Below are positions 11,383-33,852 of a DNA stretch of 64,000 nucleotides, piece by piece (the stretch's first letter is position 1; each line of letters opens with the position of its first letter). This DNA comes from Escherichia coli. Its GTDB lineage: Bacteria > Pseudomonadota > Gammaproteobacteria > Enterobacterales > Enterobacteriaceae. The notes under the pieces are model-generated. The model saw only the letters and a program-made list of their open reading frames with translations. It was not told the origin of the DNA and made no database searches. Location of the stretch: the NCBI RefSeq assembly GCF_003790525.1, contig NZ_CP033635.1. One strand, written 5' to 3'. The position numbers and the translations under genes are program-made.

Positions 11383-11426
11383 AAGCAGACGCACAGAGTG
11401 CTGGCATCACATTCTGTGCGTATGGT

Positions 11427-12326: not shown

Positions 12327-12520
12327 TCTACCGCCTCTGAATTTCATCTTTTGTAAGCAATCAACTTAGCTGAATTTACTTTTCTTTAACAGTTGATTCG
12401 TTAGTCGCCGATTACGACGGCATTAATGCGCAAATAAGTCGCTATACTTCGGATTTTTGCCATGCTATTCCTTTACATCTCTAAAACAAAACATAACGAA
12501 ACGCACTGCCGGACAGACAA

Positions 12521-13708
12521 ATGAACTTATCCCTACGACGCTCTACCAGCGCCCTTCTTGCCTCGTCGTTGTTATTAACCATCGGACGCGGCGCTACGCT
12601 GCCGTTTATGACCATTTACTTGAGTCGCCAGTACAGCCTGAGTGTCGATCTAATCGGTTATGCGATGACAATTGCGCTCACTATTGGCGTCGTTTTTAGC
12701 CTCGGTTTTGGTATCCTGGCGGATAAGTTCGACAAGAAACGCTATATGTTACTGGCAATTACCGCCTTCGCCAGCGGTTTTATTGCCATTCCTTTAGTGA
12801 ATAACGTGACGCTGGTGGTGCTCTTTTTTGCCCTTATTAACTGCGCCTATTCCGTTTTTGCTACCGTGTTGAAAGCCTGGTTTGCCGACAATCTTTCGTC
12901 CACCAGCAAAACGAAAATCTTCTCAATCAACTACACCATGCTCAACATTGGCTGGACCATCGGTCCGCCGCTCGGCACGTTGTTGGTGATGCAGAGCATC
13001 AATCTGCCCTTTTGGCTGGCAGCTATCTGTTCCGCGTTTCCCATGCTTTTCATTCAAATTTGGGTAAAGCGCAGCGAGAAAATCATCGCCACGGAAACAG
13101 GCAGAGCCTGGTCGCCGAAAGTTTTATTACAAGATAAAGCACTGTTGTGGTTTACCTGCTCTGGTTTTCTGGCTTCCTTTGTTAGCGGCGCATTTGCCTC
13201 GTGCATTTCACAATATGTGATGGTGATTGCTGATGGGGATTTTGCCGAAAAGGTGGTCGCGGTTGTTCTTCCGGTGAATGCTGCCATGGTAGTTACGTTG
13301 CAATATTCCGTGGGCCGCCGCCTTAACCCGGCTAACATCCGCGCGCTGATGACAGCAGGCACCCTCTGTTTCGTCATCGGGCTGGTCGGTTTTATTTTTT
13401 CCGGCAACAGCCTGCTAATGTGGGGTATGTCAGCTGCGGTATTTACTGTCGGTGAAATCATTTATGCGCCGGGCGAGTATATGTTGATTGACCATATTGC
13501 GCCGCCAGGAATGAAAGCCAGCTATTTTTCCGCCCAGTCTTTAGGCTGGCTTGGTGCTGCGATTAACCCATTAGTGAGTGGCATAGTACTTACCAGTCTG
13601 CCGCCTTTCTCGCTGTTTATCATCTTAGCGTTGGTGATCGTTGCTGCGTGGGTGCTGATGTTAAAAGGAATTCGTGCAAGACCGTGGGGGCAGCCCGCGC
13701 TTTGTTGA
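12521..13708 (+). CDS. ydeE: MFS transporter YdeE
   Basis: 395 aa 12-TM MFS protein at the expected position. Confidence 0.8.
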   Translation: MNLSLRRSTSALLASSLLLTIGRGATLPFMTIYLSRQYSLSVDLIGYAMTIALTIGVVFSLGFGILADKFDKKRYMLLAITAFASGFIAIPLVNNVTLVVLFFALINCAYSVFATVLKAWFADNLSSTSKTKIFSINYTMLNIGWTIGPPLGTLLVMQSINLPFWLAAICSAFPMLFIQIWVKRSEKIIATETGRAWSPKVLLQDKALLWFTCSGFLASFVSGAFASCISQYVMVIADGDFAEKVVAVVLPVNAAMVVTLQYSVGRRLNPANIRALMTAGTLCFVIGLVGFIFSGNSLLMWGMSAAVFTVGEIIYAPGEYMLIDHIAPPGMKASYFSAQSLGWLGAAINPLVSGIVLTSLPPFSLFIILALVIVAAWVLMLKGIRARPWGQPALC

Positions 13709-13834
13709 TTTAAGTCGAACACAATAAAAATTTAATTCAGCCTTCGTTTAGGTTACCTCTGCTAATATCTTTCTCATTGAGATGAAAATTAAGGTAAGCG
13801 AGGAAACACACCACACCATAAACGGAGGCAAATA

Positions 13835-13930
13835 ATGCTGGGTAATATGAATGTTTTTATGGCCGTACTGGGAATAATTTTATTTTCTGGTTTTCTGGCC
13901 GCGTATTTCAGCCACAAATGGGATGACTAA
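13835..13930 (+). CDS. mgtS: small membrane protein MgtS (YneM), 31 aa
   Basis: MLGNMNVFMAVLGIILFSGFLAAYFSHKWDD with RBS GGAGG; followed by a hairpin terminator. Confidence 0.8.
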   Translation: MLGNMNVFMAVLGIILFSGFLAAYFSHKWDD

Positions 13931-13985
13931 TGAACGGAGATAATCCCTCACCTAACCGGCCCCTTGTTACAACTGTGTACAAGGG

Positions 13986-14100
13986 GCCTGATTTTTATGA
14001 CGGCGAAAAAAAACCGCCAGTAAACCGGCGGTGAATGCTTGCATGGATAGATTTGTGTTTTGCTTTTACGCTAACAGGCATTTTCCTGCACTGATAACGG
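13986..14100 (-). ncRNA. mgrR: probable PhoP-regulated sRNA MgrR (boundaries approximate)
   Basis: minus-strand intrinsic terminator (CCGCCGGTTTACTGGCGG + U8, about 13986-14012) and upstream PhoP-box-like direct repeat GTTTAA-N5-GTTTAA (14137-14154); known locus between mgtS and dgcZ. Confidence 0.45.
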
Positions 14101-14148
14101 ATCGTTGACACAGTAGCATCAGTTTTCTCAATGAATGTTAAACGGAGC

Positions 14149-15039
14149 TTAAACTCGGTGAATCACGTTTTGTTCGTCAATAAACATACAGCGATTTCTT
14201 CCGGTTTGCTTACCCTCATACATTGCCCGGTCCGCTCTTCCAATGACCACATCCAGAGGCTCTTCAGGAAATGCGCGACTCACACCTGCTGTCACGGTAA
14301 TGTTGATATGCCCTTCAGAATGTGTGATGGCATGGTTATCGACTAACTGGCAAATTCTGATACCTGCACGACATGCTTCTTCATCATTATCCGCTTTGAC
14401 AATAATGATAAATTCTTCGCCCCCGTAGCGATAAACCGTTTCGTAATCACGCGTCCAACTGGCTAAGTAAGTTGCCAGGGTGCGTAATACTACATCGCCG
14501 ATTAAATGCCCGTAGGTATCATTAACCAATTTAAATCGGTCAATATCCAACAACATTAAATAAAGATTCAGAGGCTCAGCGTTGCGTAACTGATGATCGA
14601 AGGATTCATCAAGAACCCGACGACCCGGCAATCCCGTCAAAACATCCATATTGCTACGGATCGTCAGTAAATAAATTTTGTAATCGGTTAATGCCGCAGT
14701 AAAAGAAAGCAACCCTTCCTGAAAAGCGTCGAAATGCGCGTCCTGCCAGTGATTTTCAACAATAGCCAACATTAATTCCCGACCACAGTTATGCATATGT
14801 TGATGGGCAGAATCCATTAGCCGAACGTAAGGTAATTCATCGTTATCGAGTGGCCCCAGATGATCAATCCACCGACCAAACTGGCACAGTCCATAAGAAT
14901 GGTTATCCGTTATTTCTGGCTTACTGGCATCTATCGCGACCACGCTGTGAAACATACTTACCAGCCACTGGTAGTGGGCATCGATAGCCTTATTGAGATT
15001 TAACAAGATGGCATCAATTTCCGTTGTCTTCTTGATCAT
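14149..15039 (-). CDS. dgcZ: zinc-sensing diguanylate cyclase DgcZ (CZB + GGDEF)
   Basis: 296 aa; GGEEF motif present; recognised DgcZ/YdeH sequence. Confidence 0.9.
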   Translation of the reverse strand: MIKKTTEIDAILLNLNKAIDAHYQWLVSMFHSVVAIDASKPEITDNHSYGLCQFGRWIDHLGPLDNDELPYVRLMDSAHQHMHNCGRELMLAIVENHWQDAHFDAFQEGLLSFTAALTDYKIYLLTIRSNMDVLTGLPGRRVLDESFDHQLRNAEPLNLYLMLLDIDRFKLVNDTYGHLIGDVVLRTLATYLASWTRDYETVYRYGGEEFIIIVKADNDEEACRAGIRICQLVDNHAITHSEGHINITVTAGVSRAFPEEPLDVVIGRADRAMYEGKQTGRNRCMFIDEQNVIHRV

Positions 15040-15293
15040 TGCCACTCCTTTTTCACAGTTCCTTGTGCGCGCTATTCTAACGGGAGAAAAGCAAAATTAC
15101 GTCAATATTTTCATAGAAATCCGAAGTTATGAGTCATCTCTGAGATAACATTGTGATTTGAAACAAAATCAGCAGATAAAAAAGTGTTTAATTCTGTAAA
15201 TTAACTCTGCATTATCGCAATTAAAAGGATGACAAATAGCATAACCCAATACCCTAATGGCCCAGTAGTTCAGGCCATCAGGCTAATTTATTT

Positions 15294-15686
15294 TTATTTC
15301 TGCAAATGAGTGACCCGAACGACGGCCGGAGCGCTTTTCTTATCCAGACTTCCGCTAATGTTGATCATCTGGTCCGGCTGAACTTCTCGTCCATCAAAGA
15401 CTGCCGCAGGAATAACAACATTAATTTCACCGCTCTTATCGCGAAAAACGTAACGGTCTTCTCCTTTGTGAGAAATCAAATTACCGCGCAGTGAAACCGA
15501 AGCGCCATCATGCATGGTTTTTGCGAAATCAACGGTCATTTTTTTTGCATCATCGGTTCCGCGATAGCCATCTTCTATTGCATGAGGCGGCGGTGGCGCT
15601 GCATCCTGTTTTAATCCGCCCTGGTCATCTGCCAACGCATAAGGCATGACAAGAAAACTTGCTAATACAATGGCCTGAAATTTCAT
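15294..15686 (-). CDS. ydeI: periplasmic OB-fold (BOF/YgiW family) protein YdeI
   Basis: 130 aa with signal peptide. Confidence 0.8.
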
Positions 15687-15925
15687 ACTGACTCCTTAAT
15701 TGCGTTTGGTTTGACTTATTAAGTCTGGTTGCTATTTTTATAATTGCCAAATAAGAATACTGCCAATTGTTATAAGGCATTTAAAATCAGGCTACTAGAT
15801 GTCAAATATTCAGAGAATTTAACTCACTAAAGTTAAGAAGATTGAAGAGTCTTAAACATATTTCAGAACAATCAGATTTATAAATTTGAAAATTATTATA
15901 ACGGAAGAGTATACAAAAAAGTAAT

Positions 15926-16003
15926 TTTGCTGGCGACTGCGAAACGGCATTCGCATTAGCGGTGAAGTTTGCCCTCGCCCAGCTGCTGCAATTACTGCTA
16001 TAA
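15926..16003 (+). pseudogene. ydeJ: 3' remnant of ydeJ (CinA/PncC C-terminal-domain paralog); 5' part replaced by AT-rich sequence
   Basis: short in-frame tail FAGDCETAFALAVKFALAQLLQLLL* matching a CinA-like C-terminus; only about 360 bp between ydeI and dcp. Confidence 0.45.
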
Positions 16004-16047
16004 CGAGGCTGGTCTGGCGATAAATCCAGGCCAGCCATTGGTGGTGT

Positions 16048-18093
16048 TTATACGTTCAAGCCACGATGTTGCAGCATCGGCATAATCTGAGGTGCCTTAC
16101 CGCGCCATTGTCGATACAGGCGTTCCAGATCCTCGCTGTTACCTCTGGAAAGGATCGCCTCGCGAAAACGCAGCCCATTTTCACGCGTTAATCCGCCCTG
16201 CTCAACAAACCACTGATAACCATCATCGGCCAACATTTGCGTCCACAGATAAGCGTAATAACCCGCGGCATATCCGCCACCAAAAATATGGGCGAAATAA
16301 CTGCTGCGATAGCGTGGCGGTATAGCGGGAAGATCCATATTTTCCGCCACCAGCGCCCGCAATTCAAAATCATCGACATCCTGCATTGCTTCGTTTTCTT
16401 CCAGGCAATGCCAGCGCATATCGAGAAGTGCGGCGCTAAGCAGTTCGCTCATCTCATACCCTTTGTTGAACAGGCTGGCATTACGCATTTTCTGTTGCAG
16501 TTCGTCAGGCATTGCTGCCCCGCTCTGATAATGCCGGGCGTAGCGAGCGAATACCTGCGGATGTGTTGCCCAGTGTTCGTTGATTTGCGACGGAAATTCG
16601 ACAAAATCACGCGGCGTGTTGGTGCCGGAAAGCGTGGCATAACGCTGGCGGGCAAAAAGGCCGTGCAGCGTATGACCAAATTCATGGAATAAGGTTATTA
16701 CATCATCCCAGAGTAACAACGCAGGCTCACCGGCAGCGGGTTTCTGATAATTGCAGACGTTATAAATTACCGGATGCGTTTCATTAAGCGTTGATTGCTC
16801 AACAAAATTGCCCATCCATGCACCGCCGCTTTTTGAATCACGGGCGAAGAAATCACCGTAAAATAACGCCAGCCCCACGCCATTATGATCAAAAATTTCC
16901 CACACCCGAACGTCAGGATGGTAGACAGGAATATCAAAACGTTCGACAAACTTAATACCGAAGAGCTGATTCGCGGTCCAGAATACACCTTCATTCAACA
17001 CCGTGTTTAATTCAAAATATGGCTTGAGCTGCGATTCATCGAGATCGAATTTCTCACGTCTTACCTGCTCGGCATAAAATGCCCAGTCCCACGGCTGCGC
17101 GCTAAACCCGCCCTGCTGCTTATCAATAATCGCCTGTATGGAGGCTAACTCATCGCTCGCACGTTGACGCGCCGCTGGAACAATTTCCCGCATAAAGTTG
17201 AGCGCTGCTTCTGGCGTTTTTGCCATCTGATCGGCGATTTTCCATGCGGCATAATGAGGAAAACCAAGCAGTTTCGCCTGCTGCGCGCGGATCTCCACCA
17301 GACGTTGAATGATAGCGCGGGTGTCATTGGCATCATTTTTTTCCGCTCGCATCCAGCCCGCAGTAAACAGTTTTTCACGCGTCGCGCGATCGCACAGTTC
17401 AGCAAGCGCTGGTTGTTGGGTGGTATTCAGCAGCGGAATCAGCCATTTGTTATACAGACCTTTCTCGCGAGCCGCCTCTGCCGCCAGCACAATCTCTTGC
17501 TCACTCATTCCTGCCAGCTGCGCGATATCGTTCACAACCAGACCGCCGGATTTATTTGCTGCCAGTAACCGCTGGTTAAACTGGCTGGTCAGGGTCGCAG
17601 CTTCTGTATTCAGTACTTTTAATTTTGCTTTATCAGCTTGCTTAAGTTTGGCTCCGGCAAGGACAAAACGTTGATGAATCACCTCCACCAGGCGGATGGA
17701 TTCACTATCAAGCCCCAGGGATTCACGGCGCTGCCAGACAGCATCTACCCGCGCGAATAATTCCCCGTTCAGATAGATATCATTCGCAAGTTCCGCCAGT
17801 TCAGCGGAAAACTGTTCATCAAGACGCTGTAATTCATCATTGGTATGCGCCGCAGTCATCGCAAAAAAGACGCTGGTAACGCGGGTAAGTAATTCTCCGC
17901 TTTGTTCCAGTGCCAGAATAGTATTGTTGAAATCAGGTGTTTGCGGGTTAAGCGCGATGGCAGCAATTTCTGCCCGCTTTTGCTGCATTCCCTCATCGAA
18001 TGCCGGGCGATAGTGATGATTGGCAATTTGATCAAAATGGGGAGCCAGATACGGCAGTGTGCTTTGCACAAGGAAAGGATTCATTGTTGTCAT
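16048..18093 (-). CDS. dcp: dipeptidyl carboxypeptidase II (M3 family)
   Basis: 681 aa from MTTMNPFLVQS; HEFGH zinc motif. Confidence 0.92.
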   Translation of the reverse strand: MTTMNPFLVQSTLPYLAPHFDQIANHHYRPAFDEGMQQKRAEIAAIALNPQTPDFNNTILALEQSGELLTRVTSVFFAMTAAHTNDELQRLDEQFSAELAELANDIYLNGELFARVDAVWQRRESLGLDSESIRLVEVIHQRFVLAGAKLKQADKAKLKVLNTEAATLTSQFNQRLLAANKSGGLVVNDIAQLAGMSEQEIVLAAEAAREKGLYNKWLIPLLNTTQQPALAELCDRATREKLFTAGWMRAEKNDANDTRAIIQRLVEIRAQQAKLLGFPHYAAWKIADQMAKTPEAALNFMREIVPAARQRASDELASIQAIIDKQQGGFSAQPWDWAFYAEQVRREKFDLDESQLKPYFELNTVLNEGVFWTANQLFGIKFVERFDIPVYHPDVRVWEIFDHNGVGLALFYGDFFARDSKSGGAWMGNFVEQSTLNETHPVIYNVCNYQKPAAGEPALLLWDDVITLFHEFGHTLHGLFARQRYATLSGTNTPRDFVEFPSQINEHWATHPQVFARYARHYQSGAAMPDELQQKMRNASLFNKGYEMSELLSAALLDMRWHCLEENEAMQDVDDFELRALVAENMDLPAIPPRYRSSYFAHIFGGGYAAGYYAYLWTQMLADDGYQWFVEQGGLTRENGLRFREAILSRGNSEDLERLYRQWRGKAPQIMPMLQHRGLNV

Positions 18094-18229
18094 TTTCTTC
18101 TCCTGAACGCGAGGTGTTCCATAGCGTAGGCTTACTGATAACGGAGTGCAATCTTGCAAACCAGTATTACCCGCTCTTAAGCATCACGTGCTATGTTATT
18201 GACACACAAAAGCGTTGAGGAACAGTGAG

Positions 18230-18976
18230 ATGATCGTTTTAGTAACTGGAGCAACGGCAGGTTTTGGTGAATGCATTACTCGTCGTTTTATTCAACAAGG
18301 GCATAAAGTTATCGCCACTGGCCGTCGCCAGGAGCGGTTGCAGGAGTTAAAAGACGAACTGGGAGATAATCTGTATATCGCCCAACTGGACGTTCGCAAC
18401 CGCGCCGCTATTGAAGAGATGCTGGCATCGCTTCCTGCCGAGTGGTGCAATATTGATATCCTGGTAAATAATGCCGGTCTGGCGTTGGGCATGGAGCCTG
18501 CGCATAAAGCCAGCGTTGAAGACTGGGAAACGATGATTGATACCAACAACAAAGGCCTGGTATATATGACGCGCGCCGTCTTACCGGGTATGGTTGAACG
18601 TAATTATGGTCATATTATTAACATTGGCTCAACGGCAGGCAGCTGGCCGTATGCCGGTGGTAACGTTTACGGTGCGACGAAAGCGTTTGTTCGTCAGTTT
18701 AGCCTGAATCTGCGTACGGACCTGCATGGTACGGCGGTGCGCGTCACCGACATCGAACCGGGTCTGGTGGGTGGCACCGAGTTTTCCAATGTCCGCTTTA
18801 AAGGCGATGACGGTAAAGCGGAAAAAACCTATCAAAATACCGTTGCATTGACGCCAGAAGATGTCAGCGAAGCCGTCTGGTGGGTGTCAACGCTGCCTGC
18901 TCACGTCAATATCAATACCCTGGAAATGATGCCGGTTACCCAAAGCTATGCCGGACTGAATGTCCACCGTCAGTAA
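18230..18976 (+). CDS. ydfG: NADP-dependent 3-hydroxy acid dehydrogenase (SDR)
   Basis: 248 aa, TGATAGFG Rossmann motif. Confidence 0.9.
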   Translation: MIVLVTGATAGFGECITRRFIQQGHKVIATGRRQERLQELKDELGDNLYIAQLDVRNRAAIEEMLASLPAEWCNIDILVNNAGLALGMEPAHKASVEDWETMIDTNNKGLVYMTRAVLPGMVERNYGHIINIGSTAGSWPYAGGNVYGATKAFVRQFSLNLRTDLHGTAVRVTDIEPGLVGGTEFSNVRFKGDDGKAEKTYQNTVALTPEDVSEAVWWVSTLPAHVNINTLEMMPVTQSYAGLNVHRQ

Positions 18977-19064
18977 TTTTTATACCCGGCGTAACTGCCG
19001 GGTTATTGCTTGTCACAAAAAAGTGGTAGACTCATGCAGTTAACTCACTCACAAGCAAGAACGA

Positions 19065-19751
19065 ATGACCGTCGAAACGCAACTTAATCCCACACAGCCT
19101 GTCAATCAGCAGATTTATCGTATTCTTCGTCGCGACATTGTCCATTGCCTGATTGCTCCAGGCACACCGTTGTCGGAAAAAGAAGTTTCTGTTCGTTTCA
19201 ATGTGTCACGCCAGCCGGTTCGTGAAGCCTTTATTAAACTGGCGGAAAACGGCCTGATTCAAATTCGTCCGCAGCGTGGCAGCTACGTCAACAAAATTTC
19301 CATGGCCCAGGTGCGCAACGGCAGTTTTATCCGTCAGGCCATTGAGTGCGCGGTGGCGCGTCGGGCGGCGAGCATGATTACCGAAAGCCAGTGCTACCAA
19401 CTGGAACAAAATCTTCACCAGCAACGCATTGCCATTGAGCGCAAGCAACTGGATGATTTTTTTGAACTTGATGACAACTTCCATCAACTCCTGACCCAGA
19501 TTGCCGACTGTCAACTGGCGTGGGATACCATTGAGAACCTGAAAGCGACCGTTGATCGCGTGCGCTATATGAGTTTCGACCACGTTTCTCCACCAGAAAT
19601 GCTGTTACGCCAGCATCTTGAGATTTTCTCTGCCCTGCAAAAACGTGATGGCGATGCGGTAGAACGTGCAATGACGCAACATTTGCAGGAAATCAGCGAA
19701 TCCGTGCGCCAGATCCGTCAGGAAAACAGCGACTGGTTTAGCGAAGAGTAA
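19065..19751 (+). CDS. rspR: GntR/FadR-family regulator RspR (YdfH)
   Basis: 228 aa, GntR HTH + FCD domain. Confidence 0.85.
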
Positions 19752-19927
19752 TTCATTTCCTCTCATCCCATCCGGGGTGAGAGTTTTTCCCTCCGTCATA
19801 TGGCTCATGCATGCATCAAAAAAGATGTGAGCTTGATCAAAAACAAAAAATATTTCACTCGACAGGAGTATTTATATTGCGCCCGTTACGTGGGCTTCGA
19901 CTGTAAATCAGAAAGGAGAAAACACCT

Positions 19928-20131
19928 ATGACGACCTACGATCGTAACCGTAACGCAATCACCACTGGCAGCCGTGTTATGGTTAGCGGCACCGGTCACA
20001 CTGGCAAGATCCTGTCGATTGATACTGAAGGTCTGACCGCTGAGCAAATCCGTCGCGGAAAAACCGTAGTTGTTGAAGGTTGTGAAGAGAAACTGGCACC
20101 TCTGGACCTGATTCGTCTCGGCATGAACTAA
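19928..20131 (+). CDS. ydfZ: small protein YdfZ
   Basis: 67 aa with good RBS. Confidence 0.8.
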
Positions 20132-20166
20132 GCGTGTGAATGCCGCCGATGGCGGCATTGCTTTTT

Positions 20167-21627
20167 TTACTTCACGGAATATTTCGCCACGGTCGCTTTC
20201 GCACCATGCGCTAATAAAGACAAGTACGCTTCCGTCACTTTTGCAGTAAACAAGCTATTGTCTGGCAAATCATCACCAAAGATCGCCTTAATCGCCAGCA
20301 ATGACTGGACGCGCGCTTTCCCTTCGGCACTACTTTGTACAGCCTTCTGAATAACAGGTAACAGTGGATCACTGATTTCAATCGGATTTCCCTGTTCATC
20401 AACACCACCGACATAGCGCATCCAACCCGCGACGCCCAGCGCCAGCAGATCGAACTTGCTGTCATGCGCCAGATGCCAGCGAACAGAATCCAACATCCGC
20501 TGTGGCAATTTCTGGCTGCCATCCATCGCAATCTGCCAGGTTCGGTGACGTAGCGCCGGGTTGCTATAGCGTTCAATTAATCGGTTAGCGTAATCTTGCA
20601 AATCAACGCCCTGCACTTTCAACGTCGGCGCTTGTTCCTGCAACATCAAGGCATACGCTGCATGACGATAATGTTCATCTTCCATGCAGTCATTAATGTG
20701 CTGATATCCGGCAAGATAACCCAGATACGCCAGGAATGAATGACTGCCGTTGAGCATGCGCAACTTCATCTCTTCATAAGGCAGCACATCACTAACCAGT
20801 TCGGCTCCCGCTTTTTCCCATTCCGGACGTCCGGCAACAAAGTTATCTTCTATTACCCACTGGCGGAAAGGTTCACAGGCAACGCCAGCAGGATCGCGCA
20901 CACCGGTAAGTTGTTCGATTTTCGCCAGCGTATCCTCTGTCACTGCGGGCACAATACGGTCCACCATTGTTGATGGGAAAGTCACGTTTTCTTCGATCCA
21001 TTGTGCCAGTTTTACATCAACAGCTTGCGCGTAGGAAGTGACAACGTCACGCATAACATGACCGTTTTCTGGCATGTTGTCACATGACATGACGGTAAAT
21101 GCGGGAAGTCCTGCCGCTTTACGGCGAGCCAGCGCCTCGACAATCACCCCTGTTGCAGTTTTCGGCTGGTGGGGATTTTGTACGTCGGCAACGACCATCG
21201 GGTGATCGAGCATTAACTGTCCGGTCGCCGGAGAGTGGAAATACCCTTTTTCGGTGATTGTCAGAGAGACAATCGCGATTTGCGGTTCACACATCGCAGC
21301 CAACACGGTTTCTAAGCCATCAATCTGTACGTGCAAGGCTTTTTTAACGACGCCAACGACGCGAGCCGTCCACGCATCGGCCGACATTTCCGCAACGGTA
21401 TAAAGATTATCTTGCTGTTGTAAATCGGCAATTTGCTGTTCGCCGCCGATTAAATTGACCTCATAATATCCCCAGTCACTGAAATGTTCCGTAGCAAGAA
21501 TATCGGCATACACACCCTGATGCGCACGGTGAAATGCACCAAAGCCTAAATGAACAATTCTTGGGGCCAGGTTATTACGATCATAAACAGGGAGCGTCGC
21601 TTTTGCTGATAACAAATTATTTCCCAT
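20167..21627 (-). CDS. ydfI: mannitol-dehydrogenase-family oxidoreductase YdfI
   Basis: 486 aa, long-chain mannitol/mannonate dehydrogenase family. Confidence 0.85.
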
Positions 21628-21715
21628 AACAATTCCTTAAATATAAATATGGCAAGCTACATGTTTTGTTATATGAATAAAAATCCCCTCTCCGGTAAGA
21701 GAAGGGATGGAGGAT

Positions 21716-23083
21716 TTAAAGACTTCTGGAAGGTTGCGCAGCTCTGACAACATGCGGTTGATCTTCCGCAGCGTCTTCCAGCGCACTTAAATCACGGTCT
21801 TTCACTTCTGGCATTTTCAGCGCAGAAATTAAACCAATCACTGAATATGCCATGATCATAATTGCGATCGGATACCAGGATTCCGTCATGGTGCAGAAAA
21901 TACCCGCCAGGATAGGACCAAAACCGGAAGCGATAAGACCACCAATTTCTTTAGAAATGGCCATCCGGGTAAAGCGGTTTTTACAGCCGAACATTTCTGC
22001 CATGGTAATGTTTTCCAGAGCAAATAATCCCAGCACCGCACAGTTATGAATCACAATCAGTGCAACCATAATGGTGCTCGGGGCATAGCTTTTATCTACG
22101 ATGATAGAAAGCATTGGCCATGCCAGCACAATCGCAGAGGTATTCATAATAATATACGGGATCCGGCGACCAATTTTATCGGATAACCAACCAAGGAACG
22201 GAATGGTCATAAAGCCGAGAATCGAACTGATCATCAATGCATCTGTTGGAATTGCTTTGTTAAACAATAACGTCTGCACTAAATAGCCTGCAAGGAAAGT
22301 CTGAATTAAACCTGAGTTACCAGCCTGACCAAAACGCAGCCCTGTTGCCAGCCAGAAGGATTTGCTCTGGAACATGCTACCAGCAGGTGCAGGTTTTGCT
22401 GTAGGTTGGTTGCTGTCGTTAACCTTCTCAAAGACCGGGCTTTCTTTCAGATTCATACGCAACCAGATAGCAAAGACCATCACGACAACGCTCGCCAGGA
22501 ACGGTATACGCCATCCCCACGCCAACAGTTCCTCTTTACTGAGAATGAAGAACATAAAGGCCCAGATTGCCGTTGCGCTCAAGGTTCCGCAGTTAGTCCC
22601 CATAGCAACAAATGAGGAGATAATTCCGCGCTTACCTTTTGGCGCATATTCCGCCAGCATCGTACCGGCACCGGAAATTTCCGCGCCTGCCCCCAGCCCC
22701 TGAATAATACGCAGCGTCACCAGCAAAATTGGCGCAAACACACCAATTTGTGCATAGGTCGGCAGCACACCAATTAAGGTGGTACAGATCCCCATCATAG
22801 TTATGGTAATAAAGAGCACTTTTTTACGCCCGATTCTGTCGCCCATTTTGCCGAAAATAAATGCTCCGACAATACGCGCCACATAACCTGCACCGTAGGT
22901 TCCCATTGCCAGAATTAACGCCATTGCCGTTGATGATTCAGGAAAAAATATTTCATGAAACACTAACGCTGCGCCGAGCGAATATAACTGGAAATCCATA
23001 AATTCAAGCGCAGTGCCCAGCCATCCCGATACTGCTGCTTTCACCAAATCCTTAGTGCTTCTTTCGTGTTTTTCTATTGTCAT
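21716..23083 (-). CDS. ydfJ: MFS metabolite:H+ symporter YdfJ (intact)
   Basis: 455 aa ProP-like MFS transporter, uninterrupted. Confidence 0.8.
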   Translation of the reverse strand: MTIEKHERSTKDLVKAAVSGWLGTALEFMDFQLYSLGAALVFHEIFFPESSTAMALILAMGTYGAGYVARIVGAFIFGKMGDRIGRKKVLFITITMMGICTTLIGVLPTYAQIGVFAPILLVTLRIIQGLGAGAEISGAGTMLAEYAPKGKRGIISSFVAMGTNCGTLSATAIWAFMFFILSKEELLAWGWRIPFLASVVVMVFAIWLRMNLKESPVFEKVNDSNQPTAKPAPAGSMFQSKSFWLATGLRFGQAGNSGLIQTFLAGYLVQTLLFNKAIPTDALMISSILGFMTIPFLGWLSDKIGRRIPYIIMNTSAIVLAWPMLSIIVDKSYAPSTIMVALIVIHNCAVLGLFALENITMAEMFGCKNRFTRMAISKEIGGLIASGFGPILAGIFCTMTESWYPIAIMIMAYSVIGLISALKMPEVKDRDLSALEDAAEDQPHVVRAAQPSRSL

Positions 23084-23140
23084 AATGGTTATCTCTAAAA
23101 AAGAGGTAAGATGCGTACTACTTACTCGCCGTTATTGGTA

Positions 23141-24160
23141 TTATTCAGAAAAAGTGAGTAAGACTTTGCAGCAATGCTTTTGATCCTGTTCAAATAAACT
23201 AATGGCATCAGCAACATGCTGGAAATCAAACGTATGGGTAATTAGTTTTTCTGGTTTAATTAACCCTTTACTTAACCAGTCGATAACGACCGGGAATTTA
23301 TTTGCATTTAAGCGTGAAGAGAAAATAGAGAGTTCTTTTCCGGTAATTCCTTGCTGAATCACTTCAGACGGTTCACTGGAGAAGCCCATCAATACAATAC
23401 GTGCCGCTGGAGAAGCCAGCGTTACGGCTTCTTTCAGGATTGAAGGATGACAAGCCGCATCGATAATTAATGTCGGCTTGATGCCTTTTTCAGCGAAACT
23501 CTCGCTAAGCGGTGTCTGGCTGTTATTAATCGCCCAGTCTGCCCCGCTCTCTTTCGCTTTTTCCAGTCGTTCATCAATGCGATCGGCAACAATCACATTC
23601 TTAACGTTATAGACGCCTTTTAATACCTGAACGATCGTCAGGCCGATTGGACCTGCACCGTAAACCAGAACGGTATCATTTTCAGTCGGTTGACCATGAC
23701 CGGTAACGTTAGCCGCAATGGTAAAAGGTTCAATCATCACCGCATATTGATCGGCCACTGCTTCAGGAATTTTCCACGCATTTTTTGCCGGCACCACGGC
23801 ATATTCACTGAAACCACCGTCAGCGTGCACACCTAATACAGCCAGTGTCGTACAAACGTTCGGCTTACCTATAGAGCACGGATAGCAATGCCCACAGCTG
23901 ACCACCGGATCGACAGCAACGCGTTCACCGACTCTGTCGCTTTCCACGCCTTCACCCACTGCATCAATGACGCCAAAGAATTCATGTCCAATGACGCGCG
24001 GATATTTCGCAAAAGGATTATGCCCACGATAAATATGGCTATCTGAACCACAAATTCCGGCAAGTTTCACTTTTACTCGTACTTCACCCGCTGACGGGGT
24101 GGGTATTTCGCGTTCGATAATTGCCAGTTGATTCGGTTTTTCAATTAAAATGCTTTTCAT
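23141..24160 (-). CDS. rspB: starvation-sensing zinc-dependent dehydrogenase RspB
   Basis: 339 aa MDR/ADH family from MKSILIEKPN. Confidence 0.88.
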   Translation of the reverse strand: MKSILIEKPNQLAIIEREIPTPSAGEVRVKVKLAGICGSDSHIYRGHNPFAKYPRVIGHEFFGVIDAVGEGVESDRVGERVAVDPVVSCGHCYPCSIGKPNVCTTLAVLGVHADGGFSEYAVVPAKNAWKIPEAVADQYAVMIEPFTIAANVTGHGQPTENDTVLVYGAGPIGLTIVQVLKGVYNVKNVIVADRIDERLEKAKESGADWAINNSQTPLSESFAEKGIKPTLIIDAACHPSILKEAVTLASPAARIVLMGFSSEPSEVIQQGITGKELSIFSSRLNANKFPVVIDWLSKGLIKPEKLITHTFDFQHVADAISLFEQDQKHCCKVLLTFSE

Positions 24161-24171
24161 TATCTTACTCC

Positions 24172-25386
24172 TTACCAGTTCCACAGCGTGCCATCTTCCA
24201 GACGTGCGACTGGCAGATAAGCAGGTTCATAGGGATATTTCGCCGCCAGCTTTTCATCGAATTCGATGCCAAGACCCGGTTTGTCTCCCGGATGCATATA
24301 GCCGTTATCGAAAGTCCAGTTGTGCGGGAAGACTTCAAGCATTTGTTCGGAATAACCCATGTATTCCTGGACACCGAAATTGGGGACCCACAGATCAAAG
24401 TGCAGCGCCGCAGCCATGCAGACTGGCGACAAATCGGAAGGACCGTGTGAGCCAGTACGTACCTGATACAGCGAAGCAAAATCGGCAATCCGGCGCATAC
24501 CGGTAATCCCCCCCGCGTGAGTCAGCGTGGTGCGGATATAGTCGATGAGTTGTTCTTCAATCAGCTGTTTGCAGTCCCAGATGCTGTTGAAGACTTCACC
24601 CACTGCAATTGGCGTGACGGTGTGTTGGCGAATCAGGCGGAAACACTCCTGGTTTTCCGCAGGCGTCGGGTCTTCCATCCAGAACATGCGATAATCTTCA
24701 ATGCTTTTACCAAAGCGCGCCGCTTCAATAGGCGTTAAGCGATGGTGCATGTCATGAAGCAAATGTTCATTAAAACCAAACTTGTTACGTACCGCGTCAA
24801 ACAATTTCGGCATGAAATCGAGGTATTTCTCCGTCGACCACAGCTGCTCTTCCGGCCACTGTCCTTTGGTTGCGGGTTCATAAGCCAGACCTTTACCTTT
24901 CGACATGCCATAGGTGGTTTTCATACCAGGGATTCCGCACTGCACGCGGATGGCTTTGAATCCCAGCTCCTGATGACGGGCATAATCATCCAGAGCTTCA
25001 TCAATACTGTGACCGGTGGTATGGCAATAAACCATCACCCCTTCACGAGACGCGCCGCCGAGTAACTGGTAAAGCGGCATGTCGGCAGCTTTGGCTTTAA
25101 TATCCCACAGCGCCATATCAACCGCTGAAATGGCCGACATCGTAACCGGACCGCGACGCCAGTAAGCACCTTTATAGAAAAACTGCCAGATATCTTCGAT
25201 ACGGTGTGCATCGCGACCAATAAGCTGCGGACAAAGGTGATCCTGCAAATAAGAGGCCACGGAAAGCTCACGTCCATTTAGGGTGGCATCCCCAAGGCCC
25301 GTAATACCGTCCTCAGTGGTGATTTTTAATGTGACGAAATTACGCCCCGGACAGGTAACAAAAACTTCAGCCTTTACGATCTTCAT
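24172..25386 (-). CDS. rspA: starvation-sensing enolase-superfamily protein RspA
   Basis: 404 aa mannonate-dehydratase-like enolase from [10 protein letters not shown]. Confidence 0.88.
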
Positions 25387-25591
25387 GTTCGATTCCTTGC
25401 ATCGCTTGTCGTGATGCATGAAATTTACGCAACTGAGCTACTACCATACAAGTATGAAGATCAAAAAAAGCCGGAGTGATCACAAAAAAAGGCGTATATT
25501 TGCGCCGTGAATGGTTGACAAAAGATGAAATAGAATACCTTTTGTCAGCTGACACTTCCTCGTATCTTATTGATAAAATGAATTTATGTTC

Positions 25592-25918
25592 CTACGTGCG
25601 CCCCCAGCCCGCTACAATGATCAACATGCCGCAAAGCGCAATCAACGCCCCCGTCCAGTCATAAAGACTCAGTTTCACGCCATCCACAACGCGTAGCCAA
25701 ATCAACGCCGTGCAGACATAAACGCCACCATAAGCCGCGTAAACACGCCCACTCGCCGCAGGATGCAACGTTAACAACCAGACAAACAGCGCCAGTGAAA
25801 TCCCTGCCGGAAGCAACAGCCAGATACTGGCGTTTCGCTTCAACCACAGCCAGGGCAAAAAGCACCCAATAATTTCACACAGCGCAGTAGCAAAAAATAG
25901 TAACGTTGTTTTAATCAT
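25592..25918 (-). CDS. ynfA: UPF0060 inner membrane protein YnfA
   Basis: 108 aa 4-TM protein. Confidence 0.8.
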
Positions 25919-26052
25919 CTTTGTCACTTATTGACATCATGTATAGTTATAGGACGACATAATATCAGCAATATAAACACCCTCCTTGAACGTTTTGCGT
26001 TCGCAGTGGATGGTGTAGAATCAGCTTTAATCATTCATACAGGGAATGAATT

Positions 26053-26394
26053 ATGAAAATCACTCTCAGCAAACGAATCGGCCTGCTCGCTTTTCTGCTG
26101 CCTTGCGCACTGGCATTGAGCACAACTGTTCATGCCGAAACTAACAAACTGGTGATTGAGTCTGGCGACAGTGCACAAAGCCGCCAGCACGCCGCTATGG
26201 AAAAAGAGCAATGGAATGACACGCGCAATCTGCGCCAGAAAGTGAATAAACGCACTGAAAAAGAGTGGGATAAAGCCGACGCCGCTTTTGATAACCGCGA
26301 TAAATGTGAGCAAAGCGCCAACATCAATGCCTACTGGGAGCCAAATACTTTGCGCTGCCTGGACCGTCGAACTGGTCGCGTTATTACCCCCTAA
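26053..26394 (+). CDS. ynfB: secreted UPF0482 protein YnfB
   Basis: 113 aa with signal peptide. Confidence 0.8.
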
Positions 26395-26428
26395 CCTGTT
26401 ATTGATTTAAGGAATGTAAGGACACGTT

Positions 26429-26989
26429 ATGCCAAGCGCCCACAGTGTTAAGCTACGCCCGCTGGAGCGTGAAGATTTACGCTATGTACATCAACTCGAC
26501 AATAACGCCAGTGTGATGCGTTACTGGTTTGAGGAACCCTACGAAGCCTTTGTTGAACTCTCTGATCTGTACGATAAGCATATTCACGATCAGAGCGAAC
26601 GGCGCTTTGTGGTGGAATGTGACGGCGAAAAAGCCGGTCTGGTGGAGCTGGTGGAAATTAACCATGTTCATCGCCGCGCAGAATTTCAGATAATTATCTC
26701 CCCGGAATATCAGGGGAAAGGTCTGGCAACGCGTGCCGCAAAATTAGCAATGGACTATGGCTTCACCGTTCTCAATCTCTATAAGCTGTATCTGATCGTC
26801 GATAAAGAGAATGAAAAAGCGATTCACATTTACCGCAAGCTTGGCTTTACGGTTGAAGGTGAATTGATGCATGAGTTCTTTATTAATGGTCAATATCGGA
26901 ATGCCATTCGTATGTGCATATTCCAGCATCAGTATCTGGCAGAGCACAAAACACCGGGTCAGACTCTCCTGAAGCCGACCGCACAATAG
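26429..26989 (+). CDS. speG: spermidine N1-acetyltransferase
   Basis: 186 aa GNAT; recognised SpeG. Confidence 0.92.
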
Positions 26990-26991
26990 CA

Positions 26992-27702
26992 TTAATAATA
27001 ATCGATAGTATTTTTGATGGTGTAAACCCGTTCGACGGCGGGTTTTACTCCTTCATCAACAATGATTAGCTGACAGTCTACCGGATTGGCGTGACTGTCA
27101 TATTCACAGCTCTGTTTTACATTACCAACCCGTTGATTATTCAGTAAAGTAACCGCGGTGTAATCTAATTTTTTGATCGGATCCGTTGATGGCGTGGCGC
27201 TGACAGATAATGTTTTGTCGTTACTTTTCGTAGTTTTACCCAGCGGATACCCCTGATCATCATAGCGATATTCCATCTGCATCTGTTTGCTGCTGGCTTT
27301 AATCACAAAGCCATTATCATCGGTTTCCCAACTCACCCCGGCAGAAGGTAATTCTGCTAGCTGGCATTTTCCCTGCAAACGAACTCTTTTCTCCAGTGTC
27401 TGGGCATCACGGTAATAATTGGCGTCCAGTACCAGGGCAACCACGGTATTATTTTCCAGATCCAGTAATTCGAGAGAATCAAAACAGCCTTCTTCCGACA
27501 AAGTCCCCGAAACACGTTTCGTCACTTCACCTTGCTCATCCATTAATGTCTGAGTGAAATCTTTTACGGGACCACGCAGCGGATCAAAATCGAATTCATT
27601 AGAGAAACTGGCCATCTCCGGGGTAAATGAAAGTGTTACCTCTGTGCGGTCACATCCTGTGAGGAATATCGCGAGTAAGCATGGCAGTAATTTGTATTTC
27701 AC
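26992..27702 (-). CDS. ynfC: UPF0257 lipoprotein YnfC (start uncertain, possibly GTG)
   Basis: lipobox LTGC near N-terminus. Confidence 0.75.
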   Translation of the reverse strand: MKYKLLPCLLAIFLTGCDRTEVTLSFTPEMASFSNEFDFDPLRGPVKDFTQTLMDEQGEVTKRVSGTLSEEGCFDSLELLDLENNTVVALVLDANYYRDAQTLEKRVRLQGKCQLAELPSAGVSWETDDNGFVIKASSKQMQMEYRYDDQGYPLGKTTKSNDKTLSVSATPSTDPIKKLDYTAVTLLNNQRVGNVKQSCEYDSHANPVDCQLIIVDEGVKPAVERVYTIKNTIDYY

Positions 27703-27806
27703 AACAGTCACCTGAGAGTAGAGATGATTCTCAATCATAGTAGCAAATACAGTACTTTACACGTTAAATGCTATGCTTAAAGAAGTTATCTTCGCGTAAG
27801 GAGCTT

Positions 27807-28115
27807 ATGATGAAACTCTCAACCTGCTGTGCCGCGCTTCTGCTCGCCCTCGCCTCACCCGCGGTACTCGCCGCGCCGGGATCCTGTGAGCGCATACAGA
27901 GCGATATATCACAGCGCATTATCAATAATGGCGTACCCGAAAGCAGCTTCACGTTAAGTATTGTACCCAATGACCAGGTTGATCAGCCTGATTCCCAGGT
28001 CGTCGGGCATTGCGCTAATGATACGCATAAAATTCTCTACACCCGCACCACCAGCGGTAACGTCTCTGCTCCCGCGCAGTCTACCCAGGATGGCGCGCCT
28101 GCCGAACCGCAGTAA
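27807..28115 (+). CDS. ynfD: secreted DUF1161-type protein YnfD
   Basis: about 102 aa with signal peptide. Confidence 0.75.
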   Translation: MMKLSTCCAALLLALASPAVLAAPGSCERIQSDISQRIINNGVPESSFTLSIVPNDQVDQPDSQVVGHCANDTHKILYTRTTSGNVSAPAQSTQDGAPAEPQ

Positions 28116-28313
28116 CACATTATCGACTGAACGCCGGATACGACACATCCGGCGATTTGAACATACAACATAATCCCACCTTATTACTCATACCCTTCTA
28201 TTGATATGGATTAATAATTCTTAACCCAAAATGGGTAGACTCCCTCTATTGTTAGCGCGCTAAATATTCAATATATAAACTTTTATATAACGATAAAGAA
28301 CAGGGAGTGAGTT

Positions 28314-30740
28314 ATGTCCAAAAATGAACAAATGGTGGGCATCAGCCGCAGAACACTCGTTAAATCTACCGCGATAGGTTCTCTGGCGCTGGCTGCAGGC
28401 GGTTTTTCTTTACCGTTCACCCTGCGCAGTTCAGCGGCAGCGGTACAACAGGCCAGCGAAAAAGTGGTCTGGGGTGCCTGTTCCGTCAACTGTGGTAGCC
28501 GCTGTGCACTTCGTCTACATGTTAAAGATAATGAAGTCACTTGGGTGGAAACTGACAACACCGGCAACGACGAGTATGGCAATCAACAAGTACGCGCCTG
28601 TTTGCGCGGTCGGTCCATCCGTCGACGTATTAATCATCCCGATCGCTTGAATTACCCAATGAAACGCGTGGGCAAACGTGGCGAAGGCAAATTCGAACGG
28701 ATTAGCTGGGATGAAGCCCTGGATACTATCGCCAGTAGCCTGAAAAAAACCGTCGAACAATATGGCAATGAGGCTGTATATATTCAGTACTCTTCAGGGA
28801 TCGTTGGCGGCAATATGACCCGCTCTTCACCATCAGCCTCGGCGGTCAAACGCCTGATGAACTGCTACGGCGGTTCACTCAATCAGTATGGCTCCTACAG
28901 CACCGCGCAAATTTCCTGTGCCATGCCCTACACCTACGGCAGTAATGATGGCAACAGCACCACGGATATTGAAAACAGCAAGCTGGTCGTGATGTTTGGT
29001 AACAACCCGGCAGAAACCCGCATGAGCGGCGGTGGCATCACTTATCTTCTTGAAAAAGCACGCGAGAAATCGAACGCAAAAATGATTGTTATCGATCCGC
29101 GATATACCGATACGGCTGCTGGTCGTGAAGACGAATGGTTACCTATTCGCCCGGGCACCGATGCCGCGCTGGTTGCGGGTATTGCCTGGGTATTGATTAA
29201 CGAAAATCTCGTTGATCAACCTTTTCTCGATAAATACTGCGTCGGCTATGACGAAAAAACCTTACCCGCAGATGCACCAAAAAATGGTCACTATAAAGCC
29301 TATATTCTTGGTGAAGGTGATGATAAAACAGCGAAAACGCCGCAGTGGGCTTCGCAAATTACCGGTATCCCGGTGGACCGTATCATCAAGCTGGCTCGTG
29401 AAATTGGCACAGCAAAACCCGCTTATATCTGCCAGGGCTGGGGGCCGCAACGCCAGGCAAACGGTGAGCTGACCGCACGCGCTATTGCTATGTTGCCTAT
29501 TTTGACGGGCAATGTCGGCATCAGCGGCGGAAATAGTGGTGCGCGTGAATCGACCTATACCATTACCATAGAACGCCTACCGGTGCTGGATAATCCGGTC
29601 AAAACGTCAATCTCTTGCTTCAGCTGGACGGATGCTATCGATCATGGCCCGCAAATGACGGCAATCCGCGACGGTGTCCGGGGCAAAGATAAACTGGATG
29701 TGCCCATTAAGTTCATCTGGAACTACGCGGGAAATACCCTCGTTAATCAGCATTCTGACATCAACAAAACGCATGAAATTCTGCAGGACGAATCGAAATG
29801 CGAAATGATTGTGGTCATCGAAAACTTTATGACCTCATCGGCAAAATATGCCGACATTCTGCTGCCAGACCTGATGACCGTTGAGCAGGAAGATATTATT
29901 CCTAACGACTACGCCGGTAACATGGGATATCTCATTTTCCTTCAGCCAGTCACCAGCGAAAAATTCGAACGCAAACCGATTTACTGGATCCTGAGTGAAG
30001 TCGCGAAACGTCTTGGACCTGACGTCTATCAAAAGTTCACTGAAGGTCGCACTCAGGAACAATGGTTACAACATCTGTACGCCAAAATGCTTGCCAAAGA
30101 TCCGGCGTTACCGTCTTACGACGAACTGAAAAAAATGGGTATCTATAAGCGTAAAGATCCCAATGGTCATTTTGTCGCCTACAAAGCATTTCGTGAGGAC
30201 CCCGAGGCAAATCCACTTAAAACGCCTTCCGGTAAGATTGAAATTTATTCCAACAGGCTGGCGGAAATTGCCCGTACCTGGGAACTGGAAAAAGATGAAG
30301 TGATAAGCCCATTGCCAGTTTATGCCTCAACCTTTGAAGGCTGGGACTCCCCTGAACGTAGAACCTTCCCACTGCAACTGTTTGGTTTCCATTACAAATC
30401 CCGTACTCACTCGACCTACGGCAACATTGATGTCCTGAAGGCAGCCTGCCGTCAGGAGGTGTGGATCAACCCTATAGATGCACAGAAACGTGGGATTGCC
30501 AACGGCGATATGGTGCGGGTGTTTAACCATCGTGGCGAAGTTCGGCTACCAGCCAAAGTGACACCACGCATTCTCCCTGGAGTTAGTGCTATGGGCCAGG
30601 GAGCCTGGCACGAGGCCAATATGTCTGGCGATAAAATCGACCATGGCGGCTGTGTGAATACGCTAACCACTCTGCGCCCTTCACCACTGGCGAAGGGAAA
30701 CCCGCAGCACACTAATCTGGTCGAGATCGAAAAAATATAA
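28314..30740 (+). CDS. ynfE: Tat-exported molybdopterin oxidoreductase catalytic subunit (DmsA paralog)
   Basis: 808 aa, twin-arginine signal (SRRTLVK), Cys cluster CSVNCGSRC. Confidence 0.9.
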   Translation: MSKNEQMVGISRRTLVKSTAIGSLALAAGGFSLPFTLRSSAAAVQQASEKVVWGACSVNCGSRCALRLHVKDNEVTWVETDNTGNDEYGNQQVRACLRGRSIRRRINHPDRLNYPMKRVGKRGEGKFERISWDEALDTIASSLKKTVEQYGNEAVYIQYSSGIVGGNMTRSSPSASAVKRLMNCYGGSLNQYGSYSTAQISCAMPYTYGSNDGNSTTDIENSKLVVMFGNNPAETRMSGGGITYLLEKAREKSNAKMIVIDPRYTDTAAGREDEWLPIRPGTDAALVAGIAWVLINENLVDQPFLDKYCVGYDEKTLPADAPKNGHYKAYILGEGDDKTAKTPQWASQITGIPVDRIIKLAREIGTAKPAYICQGWGPQRQANGELTARAIAMLPILTGNVGISGGNSGARESTYTITIERLPVLDNPVKTSISCFSWTDAIDHGPQMTAIRDGVRGKDKLDVPIKFIWNYAGNTLVNQHSDINKTHEILQDESKCEMIVVIENFMTSSAKYADILLPDLMTVEQEDIIPNDYAGNMGYLIFLQPVTSEKFERKPIYWILSEVAKRLGPDVYQKFTEGRTQEQWLQHLYAKMLAKDPALPSYDELKKMGIYKRKDPNGHFVAYKAFREDPEANPLKTPSGKIEIYSNRLAEIARTWELEKDEVISPLPVYASTFEGWDSPERRTFPLQLFGFHYKSRTHSTYGNIDVLKAACRQEVWINPIDAQKRGIANGDMVRVFNHRGEVRLPAKVTPRILPGVSAMGQGAWHEANMSGDKIDHGGCVNTLTTLRPSPLAKGNPQHTNLVEIEKI

Positions 30741-30797
30741 CCCTCTACGACCATAAATTTTGACATGACATTTTGTTTGAAAAGCAATAAGTGAGTA

Positions 30798-33223
30798 ATG
30801 ATGAAAATCCATACCACAGAGGCGCTCATGAAGGCTGAAATCAGCCGTAGAAGTCTGATGAAAACCTCCGCACTTGGCAGTCTTGCGCTGGCAAGCAGTG
30901 CTTTCACTCTGCCATTTTCCCAAATGGTCCGAGCGGCAGAGACACCGGTAGAAGAGAAAGCGGTCTGGAGTTCCTGCACCGTTAACTGCGGGAGCCGCTG
31001 TCTGTTACGTTTGCATGTGAAAGATGACACCGTGTACTGGGTGGAGTCTGATACGACAGGTGACGACGTCTACGGTAATCATCAGGTTCGAGCGTGTTTA
31101 CGCGGGCGCTCTATCCGTCGACGGATGAATCATCCTGACAGGTTGAAATATCCCATGAAGCGCGTCGGCAAGCGCGGTGAAGGTAAATTTGAACGGATAA
31201 GTTGGGATGAAGCCCTGGATACCATCAGTGATAATCTTCGGCGGATCCTGAAAGATTACGGCAATGAGGCTGTACATGTCCTGTACGGAACAGGCGTAGA
31301 TGGCGGAAACATCACCAACTCGAACGTCCCGTACCGTCTGATGAACTCTTGCGGTGGTTTTCTCAGTCGCTATGGCAGCTACAGTACCGCACAGATCAGT
31401 GCCGCGATGAGTTATATGTTCGGTGCCAATGATGGCAACAGCCCGGATGATATCGCCAATACGAAACTGGTCGTTATGTTCGGAAATAACCCGGCAGAAA
31501 CCCGGATGAGCGGCGGTGGTGTCACTTACTACGTCGAGCAAGCCCGCGAACGTTCAAACGCACGCATGATCGTCATTGATCCACGTTATAACGACACTGC
31601 TGCCGGCGTGAAGATGAATGGCTGCCCATTCGCCCTGGCACCGATGGCGCACTGGCCTGTGCGATTGCCTGGGTACTGATTACTGAAAACATGGTCGATC
31701 AGCCATTTCTCGACAAATATTGTGTTGGTTACGATGAAAAAACGCTGCCCGCCAACGCACCACGTAACGCGCATTATAAAGCCTATATTCTGGGCGAAGG
31801 GCCTGACGGCATAGCTAAAACGCCGGAATGGGCAGCAAAAATCACCAGCATCCCGGCAGAAAAAATTATCCAGTTGGCACGAGAGATCGGTTCAGCAAAA
31901 CCGGCTTATATTTGTCAGGGTTGGGGGCCACAACGACATTCCAACGGCGAGCAAACATCCCGCGCTATTGCCATGCTTTCCGTTCTCACCGGTAACGTCG
32001 GCATAAACGGCGGCAACTCAGGTGTACGCGAAGGTAGCTGGGATCTGGGAGTAGAATGGTTCCCGATGCTCGAGAATCCTGTTAAAACGCAGATTTCCGT
32101 CTTTACATGGACAGATGCCATCGACCATGGTACGGAAATGACCGCGACCCGTGATGGTGTTCGTGGAAAAGAAAAACTGGATGTCCCCATCAAGTTTTTA
32201 TGGTGCTACGCCAGTAACACATTGATCAATCAACATGGCGACATCAATCACACCCATGAGGTGCTTCAGGATGACAGCAAGTGCGAGATGATTGTTGGCA
32301 TTGACCACTTCATGACTGCCTCGGCTAAGTATTGCGATATCCTGTTGCCCGACCTGATGCCAACAGAGCAAGAAGACCTTATCTCTCACGAATCTGCCGG
32401 GAATATGGGCTATGTGATCCTCGCCCAACCCGCAACCTCAGCAAAATTTGAACGCAAACCCATCTACTGGATTCTGAGTGAAGTTGCCAAACGCTTAGGA
32501 CCAGACGTTTATCAAACCTTTACTGAAGGTCGCAGTCAGCATGAATGGATCAAATATCTCCATGCGAAAACGAAGGAACGTAACCCTGAGATGCCCGACT
32601 ACGAGGAGATGAAAACGACCGGGATCTTTAAGAAAAAATGCCCGGAAGAACACTACGTCGCTTTCCGCGCATTCCGTGAAGATCCACAGGCAAACCCGTT
32701 GAAAACACCTTCGGGGAAAATCGAAATTTATTCTGAACGACTGGCGACGATTGCGGATACCTGGGAATTGAAAAAAGATGAAATTATTCATCCCCTTCCT
32801 GCATATACCCCAGGTTTTGATGGCTGGGACGATCCCCTGCGGAAAACCTATCCACTGCAGCTAACGGGCTTCCACTACAAAGCACGTACCCACTCCAGCT
32901 ACGGCAATATTGATGTGTTACAGCAGGCCTGCCCACAAGAGGTGTGGATCAACCCCATTGATGCTCAGGCACGCGGTATCCGTCATGGCGATACCGTGCG
33001 GGTATTTAACACTAATGGAGAAATGCTGATTGCCGCAAAAGTGACTCCGCGTATTCTGCCTGGCGTTACCGCCATCGGGCAAGGTGCGTGGCTTAAAGCG
33101 GATATGTTTGGTGACCGGGTCGATCACGGCGGCAGTATCAATATTCTGACCTCTCACCGCCCTTCACCGCTGGCAAAGGGAAACCCGTCGCACAGCAATC
33201 TAGTCCAGATCGAAAAGGTTTAA
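30798..33223 (+). pseudogene. ynfF: YnfF (second DmsA paralog) disrupted by an apparent 1-nt deletion near 31605-31610 (or sequencing error)
   Basis: ORFs 30798..31679 and 31691..33223 together match YnfE end-to-end but are in different frames; frame-A tail after DPRYNDTAAG is nonsense. Confidence 0.6.
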
Positions 33224-33233
33224 GGAGTAGCCC

Positions 33234-33851: not shown

Positions 33852-33852
33852 A

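Follow-up and report, generated by a model that had tools for sequence, protein, structure and literature searches.

Nakamura et al. (2021) described an 18- or 19-bp att at ydfJ for the PPydfJ prophages of Escherichia coli, reported phages integrated at ydfJ in many strains including K-12, and used the unoccupied site of O104:H4 C227-11 as their attB reference (PMC8112680). In a review, the cryptic prophage Qin was placed at the 5' end of ydfJ, where the promoter and 28 N-terminal codons are lost, and 48% of 638 Escherichia/Shigella genomes were reported to carry it (PMC6379469). The Qin site was likewise given as ydfJ in strains W, K-12, B and Crooks (PMC3032704), and a 46.8-kb lambda-like prophage lying "between ydfJ and rspB" was described in strain SE11 (PMC2608844). 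We compared these systems with the corresponding locus in the window, i.e., the whole 64-kb stretch of E. coli DNA analysed here. This region is almost certainly the unoccupied attB of the Qin/PPydfJ family of lambdoid phages, located inside an intact ydfJ gene, with no phage integrated.

Comparison of the ydfJ locus with K-12

The RefSeq annotation of MG1655 assigns 'cryptic prophage Qin' to 1632277..1652745 (20.5 kb). It is bordered by a 427-aa ydfJ (b1543) and, at its opposite end, by ynfP (36 aa) and then rspB, which confirms the statement in the preliminary description that Qin interrupts ydfJ in K-12 rather than sitting at another locus. A blastn comparison showed that positions 16713..23006 and 22988..28245 of the window correspond to the two K-12 chromosomal flanks of Qin (each ~97.8% identical), and that these two blocks overlap by 19 bp (22988..23006) with nothing in between. 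Both flanks of Qin meet directly, in agreement with the earlier claim that no prophage lies between ydfJ and rspB. The window and the K-12 Qin locus (b1543-b1579, ynfP) share the chromosomal locus, the flanking genes ydfI, ydfJ, rspB and rspA at ~97.8% identity, and the att core. However, in K-12 two att copies are separated by the 20.5-kb Qin, and ydfJ is without the first 28 codons and the upstream promoter region, whereas att occurs once in the window, in a ydfJ of 455 codons. No phage-derived sequence or second att core was detected in 21716..23140, so that the arrangement of Qin carriers, phage DNA with a duplicated att between the 3' part of ydfJ and rspB, is absent from the window. The alignment refines the preliminary description in one respect, as it puts the Qin insertion inside ydfJ, at codons 28-31, and not in the ydfJ-rspB spacer. 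K-12 YnfP consists of YdfJ residues 1-31 followed by five residues read from Qin DNA; this 36-aa protein (26729..26839 of the K-12 region) seems to have been annotated only as a result of the prophage insertion.

In the window, ydfJ belongs to a co-oriented cluster on the - strand, in the order rspA-rspB-ydfJ-ydfI. The features of this part of the window are as follows.

19065..19751, + strand: rspR (ydfH), a GntR-family regulator near the cluster, by annotation and profile match
20167..21627, - strand: ydfI, a dehydrogenase of the fructuronate reductase subfamily downstream of ydfJ (NF011611, 652 bits, cut-off 603)
21683..21708, - strand: candidate terminator-like hairpin with a T-run directly after the ydfJ stop, by consensus scan only
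21716..23083, - strand: ydfJ, 455 codons with an ATG start, predicted MHS-family MFS metabolite/H+ symporter, annotated as ydfJ in a 100% identical genome
23084..23140, - strand: spacer between rspB and ydfJ, 57 nt
23141..24160, - strand: rspB, Zn-dependent oxidoreductase (NF007489, 694 bits)
24172..25386, - strand: rspA, ManD-type D-mannonate dehydratase (NF043051, 743.6 bits, cut-off 550; PDB 4il2, 'Starvation sensing protein rspA')

The ydfJ reading frame is far longer than expected by chance, and we found no frameshift or stop codon within the gene. The DNA of 21600..23300 is 100% identical to that of E. coli SMS-3-5 and 21 other complete genomes, in which the gene product is named 'MHS family MFS transporter YdfJ' (WP_000151242.1). 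In a profile search, residues 23-418 of YdfJ covered positions 1-400 of the 400-position TIGR00883 profile (metabolite/H+ symporter) with 462.9 bits, above the curated cut-off of 443.45. The preliminary description of ydfJ as a full 455-codon gene is borne out by this full-profile match together with the reading frame itself, and the measured 57-nt spacer agrees with its placement of rspB within 60 bp. Residues 29-455 are identical to K-12 b1543 at 426 of 427 positions. A crude hydropathy scan showed multiple hydrophobic segments over the whole length of the protein, at a resolution that does not give an exact count of 12. No substrate, transport activity or functional study of YdfJ was found in the literature searched, and a search for relatives with a solved structure gave none at E <= 1e-10. 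A function as an MHS-family transporter would be consistent with the profile match.

No promoter-like or terminator-like site was detected by consensus scan in the 57-nt spacer between rspB and ydfJ, and ydfJ is most likely co-transcribed with rspA and rspB in the window strain. The terminator-like hairpin at 21683..21708 is a strong one, with 11 pairs and a T-run, and lies in the 88-nt gap between ydfJ and ydfI; its position after the ydfJ stop suggests that ydfI may have its own transcription start. In the program-made list of open reading frames, rspB reaches back to a GTG at 24184, and the annotated span is 23141..24160. Catabolism of L-gulonate via fructuronate and mannonate has reportedly been ascribed to enzymes of the RspA, RspB and YdfI types. 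The family assignments of the three enzymes would fit a gulonate/fructuronate/mannonate route, and we regard the link to L-gulonate as a lead, not as a result.

The attachment site and the phages sharing it

The 19-bp overlap between the two K-12 flanks is made up of an 11-bp core and imperfect flanks.

22988..23006, no strand: unoccupied attB, almost certainly of Qin/PPydfJ-type lambdoid phages, 19 bp, ctggaaatccataaattca, present at both Qin ends in K-12
22991..23001, no strand: 11-bp core GAAATCCATAA, reading TTATGGATTTC on the - strand, part of codons F28-M29-D30-F31, presumed crossover region

On the coding strand the core reads TT-ATG-GAT-TTC, corresponding to F28-M29-D30-F31. Alignment showed the 11-bp core to be identical in the window attB, in attL and attR of K-12, at the left junction of the O145:H28 strain RM13516, and in the attP of phage mEp460_ev081, from which we infer that crossover takes place within the core. 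The ydfJ gene of the window contains one att copy, which is uninterrupted and has chromosomal sequence on both sides, and joining the chromosomal arms of attL and attR gives exactly the window attB, without a scar, as judged against K-12 and the left junction of RM13516. The window attB would probably be usable by a phage. Compared with the PPydfJ system (PMC8112680), the window is another unoccupied example, like O104:H4 C227-11, with an overlap of 19 bp. In contrast, EHEC strains have one to four lambdoid prophages at ydfJ with nleC or nleG effector genes, and the window has none.

In order to compare the site with phage genomes, we rebuilt an attP of 611 bp from the two phage-side ends of Qin. 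This rebuilt attP occurs as one uninterrupted match, with 98.2-99.5% identity, in the genomes of four free phages, namely, PhiR42_1, mEp460_ev081, HannyBb and Tritos, and the attP core of these free lambdoid phages is the same as the attB core of the window. In mEp460, attP is located between exo-xis-int and a group comprising a ydfK-like gene, a Ser recombinase and tail-fibre genes (ydfK-like/pin/tfa/stf), and the distance from the end of the integrase gene of mEp460_ev081 to the 11-bp core is 47 bp. These surroundings mirror the two ends of Qin, one with intQ and one with ydfK-pinQ-tfaQ-stfQ. Since attP is contiguous in free phages and their gene layout resembles that of the Qin ends, Qin is, on this comparison, a decayed member of a living phage family, of which the window would be a free target. 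The four are phage genomes, and the window contains the bacterial partner site only; their integration there is a prediction.

Phages of the Qin/PPydfJ type encode a tyrosine integrase beside attP, and the 11-bp core (18-19 bp with flanking matches) is common to attP and to codons 28-31 of ydfJ. In the mechanism that we propose, ordinary site-specific recombination by the tyrosine integrase would take place within this common core, and integration would leave a promoter-proximal ydfJ stub of 31 codons and a promoter-less remainder of 427 codons, as in K-12. We infer that insertion of a prophage truncates YdfJ near its N-terminus, within LEFMDF, and cuts ydfJ off from the rspAB promoter. Because no phage is integrated in the window strain, ydfJ stays a full-length gene downstream of rspB.

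We also observed that 15 records of Stx2a-converting prophages (LC727844-LC727872) match the last 311 bp of the integrase side of Qin at ~90% identity, and that this match ends at the att core, close to where each record stops. Such matches point to a related integrase in Stx2a phages, which may use ydfJ.

The tqsA island and other variable features of the window

The only Qin-like DNA found by blastn in the 64-kb window consists of two stretches of ~76-79 bp, at 46592..46667 and 47330..47408, both inside an island in tqsA. As these two short inverted stretches are the sole matches, a displaced or remnant Qin in the window is ruled out. The island was recognized as follows.

44295..55719, - strand: satellite-like island in tqsA, 11,425 bp, an insertion relative to SMS-3-5 with a 9-bp duplication

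Matches to PHROGs identified genes for an integrase, a repressor-like protein, a RepA-like primase/helicase, an SSB, a major head protein, a head decoration protein and a TerS-like protein. An element in strain CM2 is 99.2% identical to the island and annotated alike, and no tail genes are annotated in it. Capsid-forming satellites of the PICI type are small integrated elements (~10-15 kb) with integrase, replication and head/packaging genes but no tail or lysis genes. The 11,425-bp island, with its integrase, helicase and head genes and no tail genes, fits this type, and lies ~21 kb from the ydfJ attB. A BLASTP comparison of the island integrase with that of the mEp460/Qin type gave no similarity (E = 0.46), which rules out a satellite whose integrase is related to that of the ydfJ site. 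Since both the integrases are unrelated and the targets differ, the tqsA and ydfJ sites are independent, and the island is no mechanistic substitute for Qin. The preliminary description had placed a satellite in tqsA 'instead' of Qin; the satellite is real and lies ~21 kb away, close to the 20 kb stated there, but 'instead' holds only as a juxtaposition.

The TerS-like gene of the island lies between the two inverted stretches, which have 81-84% identity to a part of Qin adjoining nohA on its upstream side (10513..10592 of the extracted K-12 region). We take this part of Qin to be the lambdoid cos/packaging region, and the two stretches may be cos-like sites of the satellite's own.

Apart from the island, the window is very similar to the phylogroup F strain SMS-3-5 (NC_010498.1), with 99.988% identity over 1601..41665. 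The two share an identical ydfJ-rspB junction and a frameshifted ynfF. They differ in that SMS-3-5 has the IS10-family element ISVsa5 between ynfM and asr and an intact tqsA, whereas the window lacks ISVsa5 and carries the 11.4-kb island in tqsA. At 41653..41665 of the window, the SMS-3-5 flanks of ISVsa5 (IS4 family, IS10-like) overlap by 13 bp. The ynfF gene (selenate/tellurate reductase subunit) at 30801..33223 is disrupted, with a stop in frame 0 at codon 292, which agrees with its annotation as a 'frameshifted' pseudogene in SMS-3-5. Between marB and eamA (5205..11381), the window contains six genes, annotated in SMS-3-5 as 6-phospho-beta-glucosidase, carbohydrate porin, PTS IIA/IIC/IIB and GntR regulator. 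In K-12, marB presumably lies directly beside eamA, and the six genes look like a strain-variable sugar-utilisation islet.

Occupancy of the site and its consequences

We surveyed 5426 complete E. coli genomes (RefSeq) with 301-bp junction probes and megablast coverage criteria. The short probes were chosen because a 1701-bp probe cannot separate empty from occupied sites, as the 3' fragment of K-12 alone covers >80% of it. The attB probe, centred on the core, had matches in 5372 of the 5426 genomes, and the contiguous, empty site was present in 2008 (37%), these and the following counts being approximate owing to the clinically biased RefSeq collection and the coverage thresholds. The split genomes among the matches listed (25 of 40 rows) all break at query position 167, corresponding to position 23006 of the window. 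The K-12-type attL and attR junctions were contiguous in 3169 (58%) and 2709 (50%) of the 5426 genomes, respectively. The comparison with K-12 and other strains that the preliminary description had called for confirms the empty site, which 37% of the complete genomes share, and an empty ydfJ site is not unusual. A blood isolate of ST131, for instance, has the same empty rspA-rspB-ydfJ-ydfI arrangement as the window, with a ydfJ of 1368 nt.

Two occupied loci were analysed. In RM13516, the prophage at the ydfJ att is lambdoid and complete, with a length of 47.7 kb, and its genes include int, xis and nleC (1330..49000 of the extracted locus). In the O157:H7 strain 2-6-2, the ydfJ att carries tandem prophages with a truncated integrase and three DUF1076 genes, which we take to be of the nleG type (1591..49901 of the extracted locus), the second prophage beginning with a duplicated dinI-like gene. 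The effector-bearing prophages of both strains agree with the prophage clusters of PMC8112680. Earlier surveys are also in agreement with the present counts. The ydfJ locus is a known hot spot for prophages, and the polymorphism there, with a prophage either present or absent, is common and has been published before; it is not a new feature.

Three other explanations of the locus were considered against an attB that is empty within an intact ydfJ. The site might once have been occupied and the prophage lost by precise excision through integrase and excisionase, in which case the empty state would be secondary. The window sequence is compatible with such a history, as site-specific excision restores attB without a scar; prophages with intact int and xis exist at the ydfJ site in other strains, and with 58% of the genomes occupied, exposure to such phages is common. 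However, there is no positive sign of past occupancy and no remnant in the window, and the site is empty in each of the 22 genomes with 100% identity over 21600..23300, as it is in ST131, so that lineages that were never lysogenised fit equally well; we consider a past excision unlikely, though with an appreciable chance of being true. That the absence of a prophage is an artefact of a collapsed or mis-joined contig has a negligible probability, since the contiguous junction is the same, base for base, in 22 complete genomes that were assembled independently, and a total of 2008 genomes have it.

The remaining alternative concerns the gene rather than the site, namely, that ydfJ is open but functionally dead, either silent or inactivated by substitutions. 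The lack of a substrate in the literature searched and of a solved structure among relatives speaks for this possibility. On the other hand, the match of YdfJ to TIGR00883 spans the full profile and exceeds the curated cut-off, a protein of identical sequence is annotated in many genomes, YdfJ differs from K-12 at one of the 427 shared residues, and ydfJ is part of a conserved cluster with no internal terminator ahead of it. A dead ydfJ is in our view improbable, and the preferred reading remains an intact ydfJ with an unoccupied attB.

Annotations of the locus should give ydfJ its full length and flag 22988..23006 as a free integration site for lambdoid phages of the Qin/mEp460/PPydfJ type. 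In EHEC lineages, T3SS effector genes arrive with such phages, which are also involved in inversions of the chromosome. A more speculative reading, to which we give a rather low probability, is that occupancy of the ydfJ att acts as a metabolic switch at the level of lineages, such that strains with an empty site (the window strain, ST131) keep a working rspA-rspB-ydfJ-ydfI sugar-acid pathway and occupied ones lose uptake; if this were true, ~60% of strains, those with a prophage, would have lost uptake, implying a fitness trade-off between lysogeny and a niche carbon source. In any case, the derived, gene-disrupted state belongs to K-12 and not to the window strain, and phenotypes tied to rspAB-ydfJ-ydfI are better studied in strains like that of the window than in K-12.
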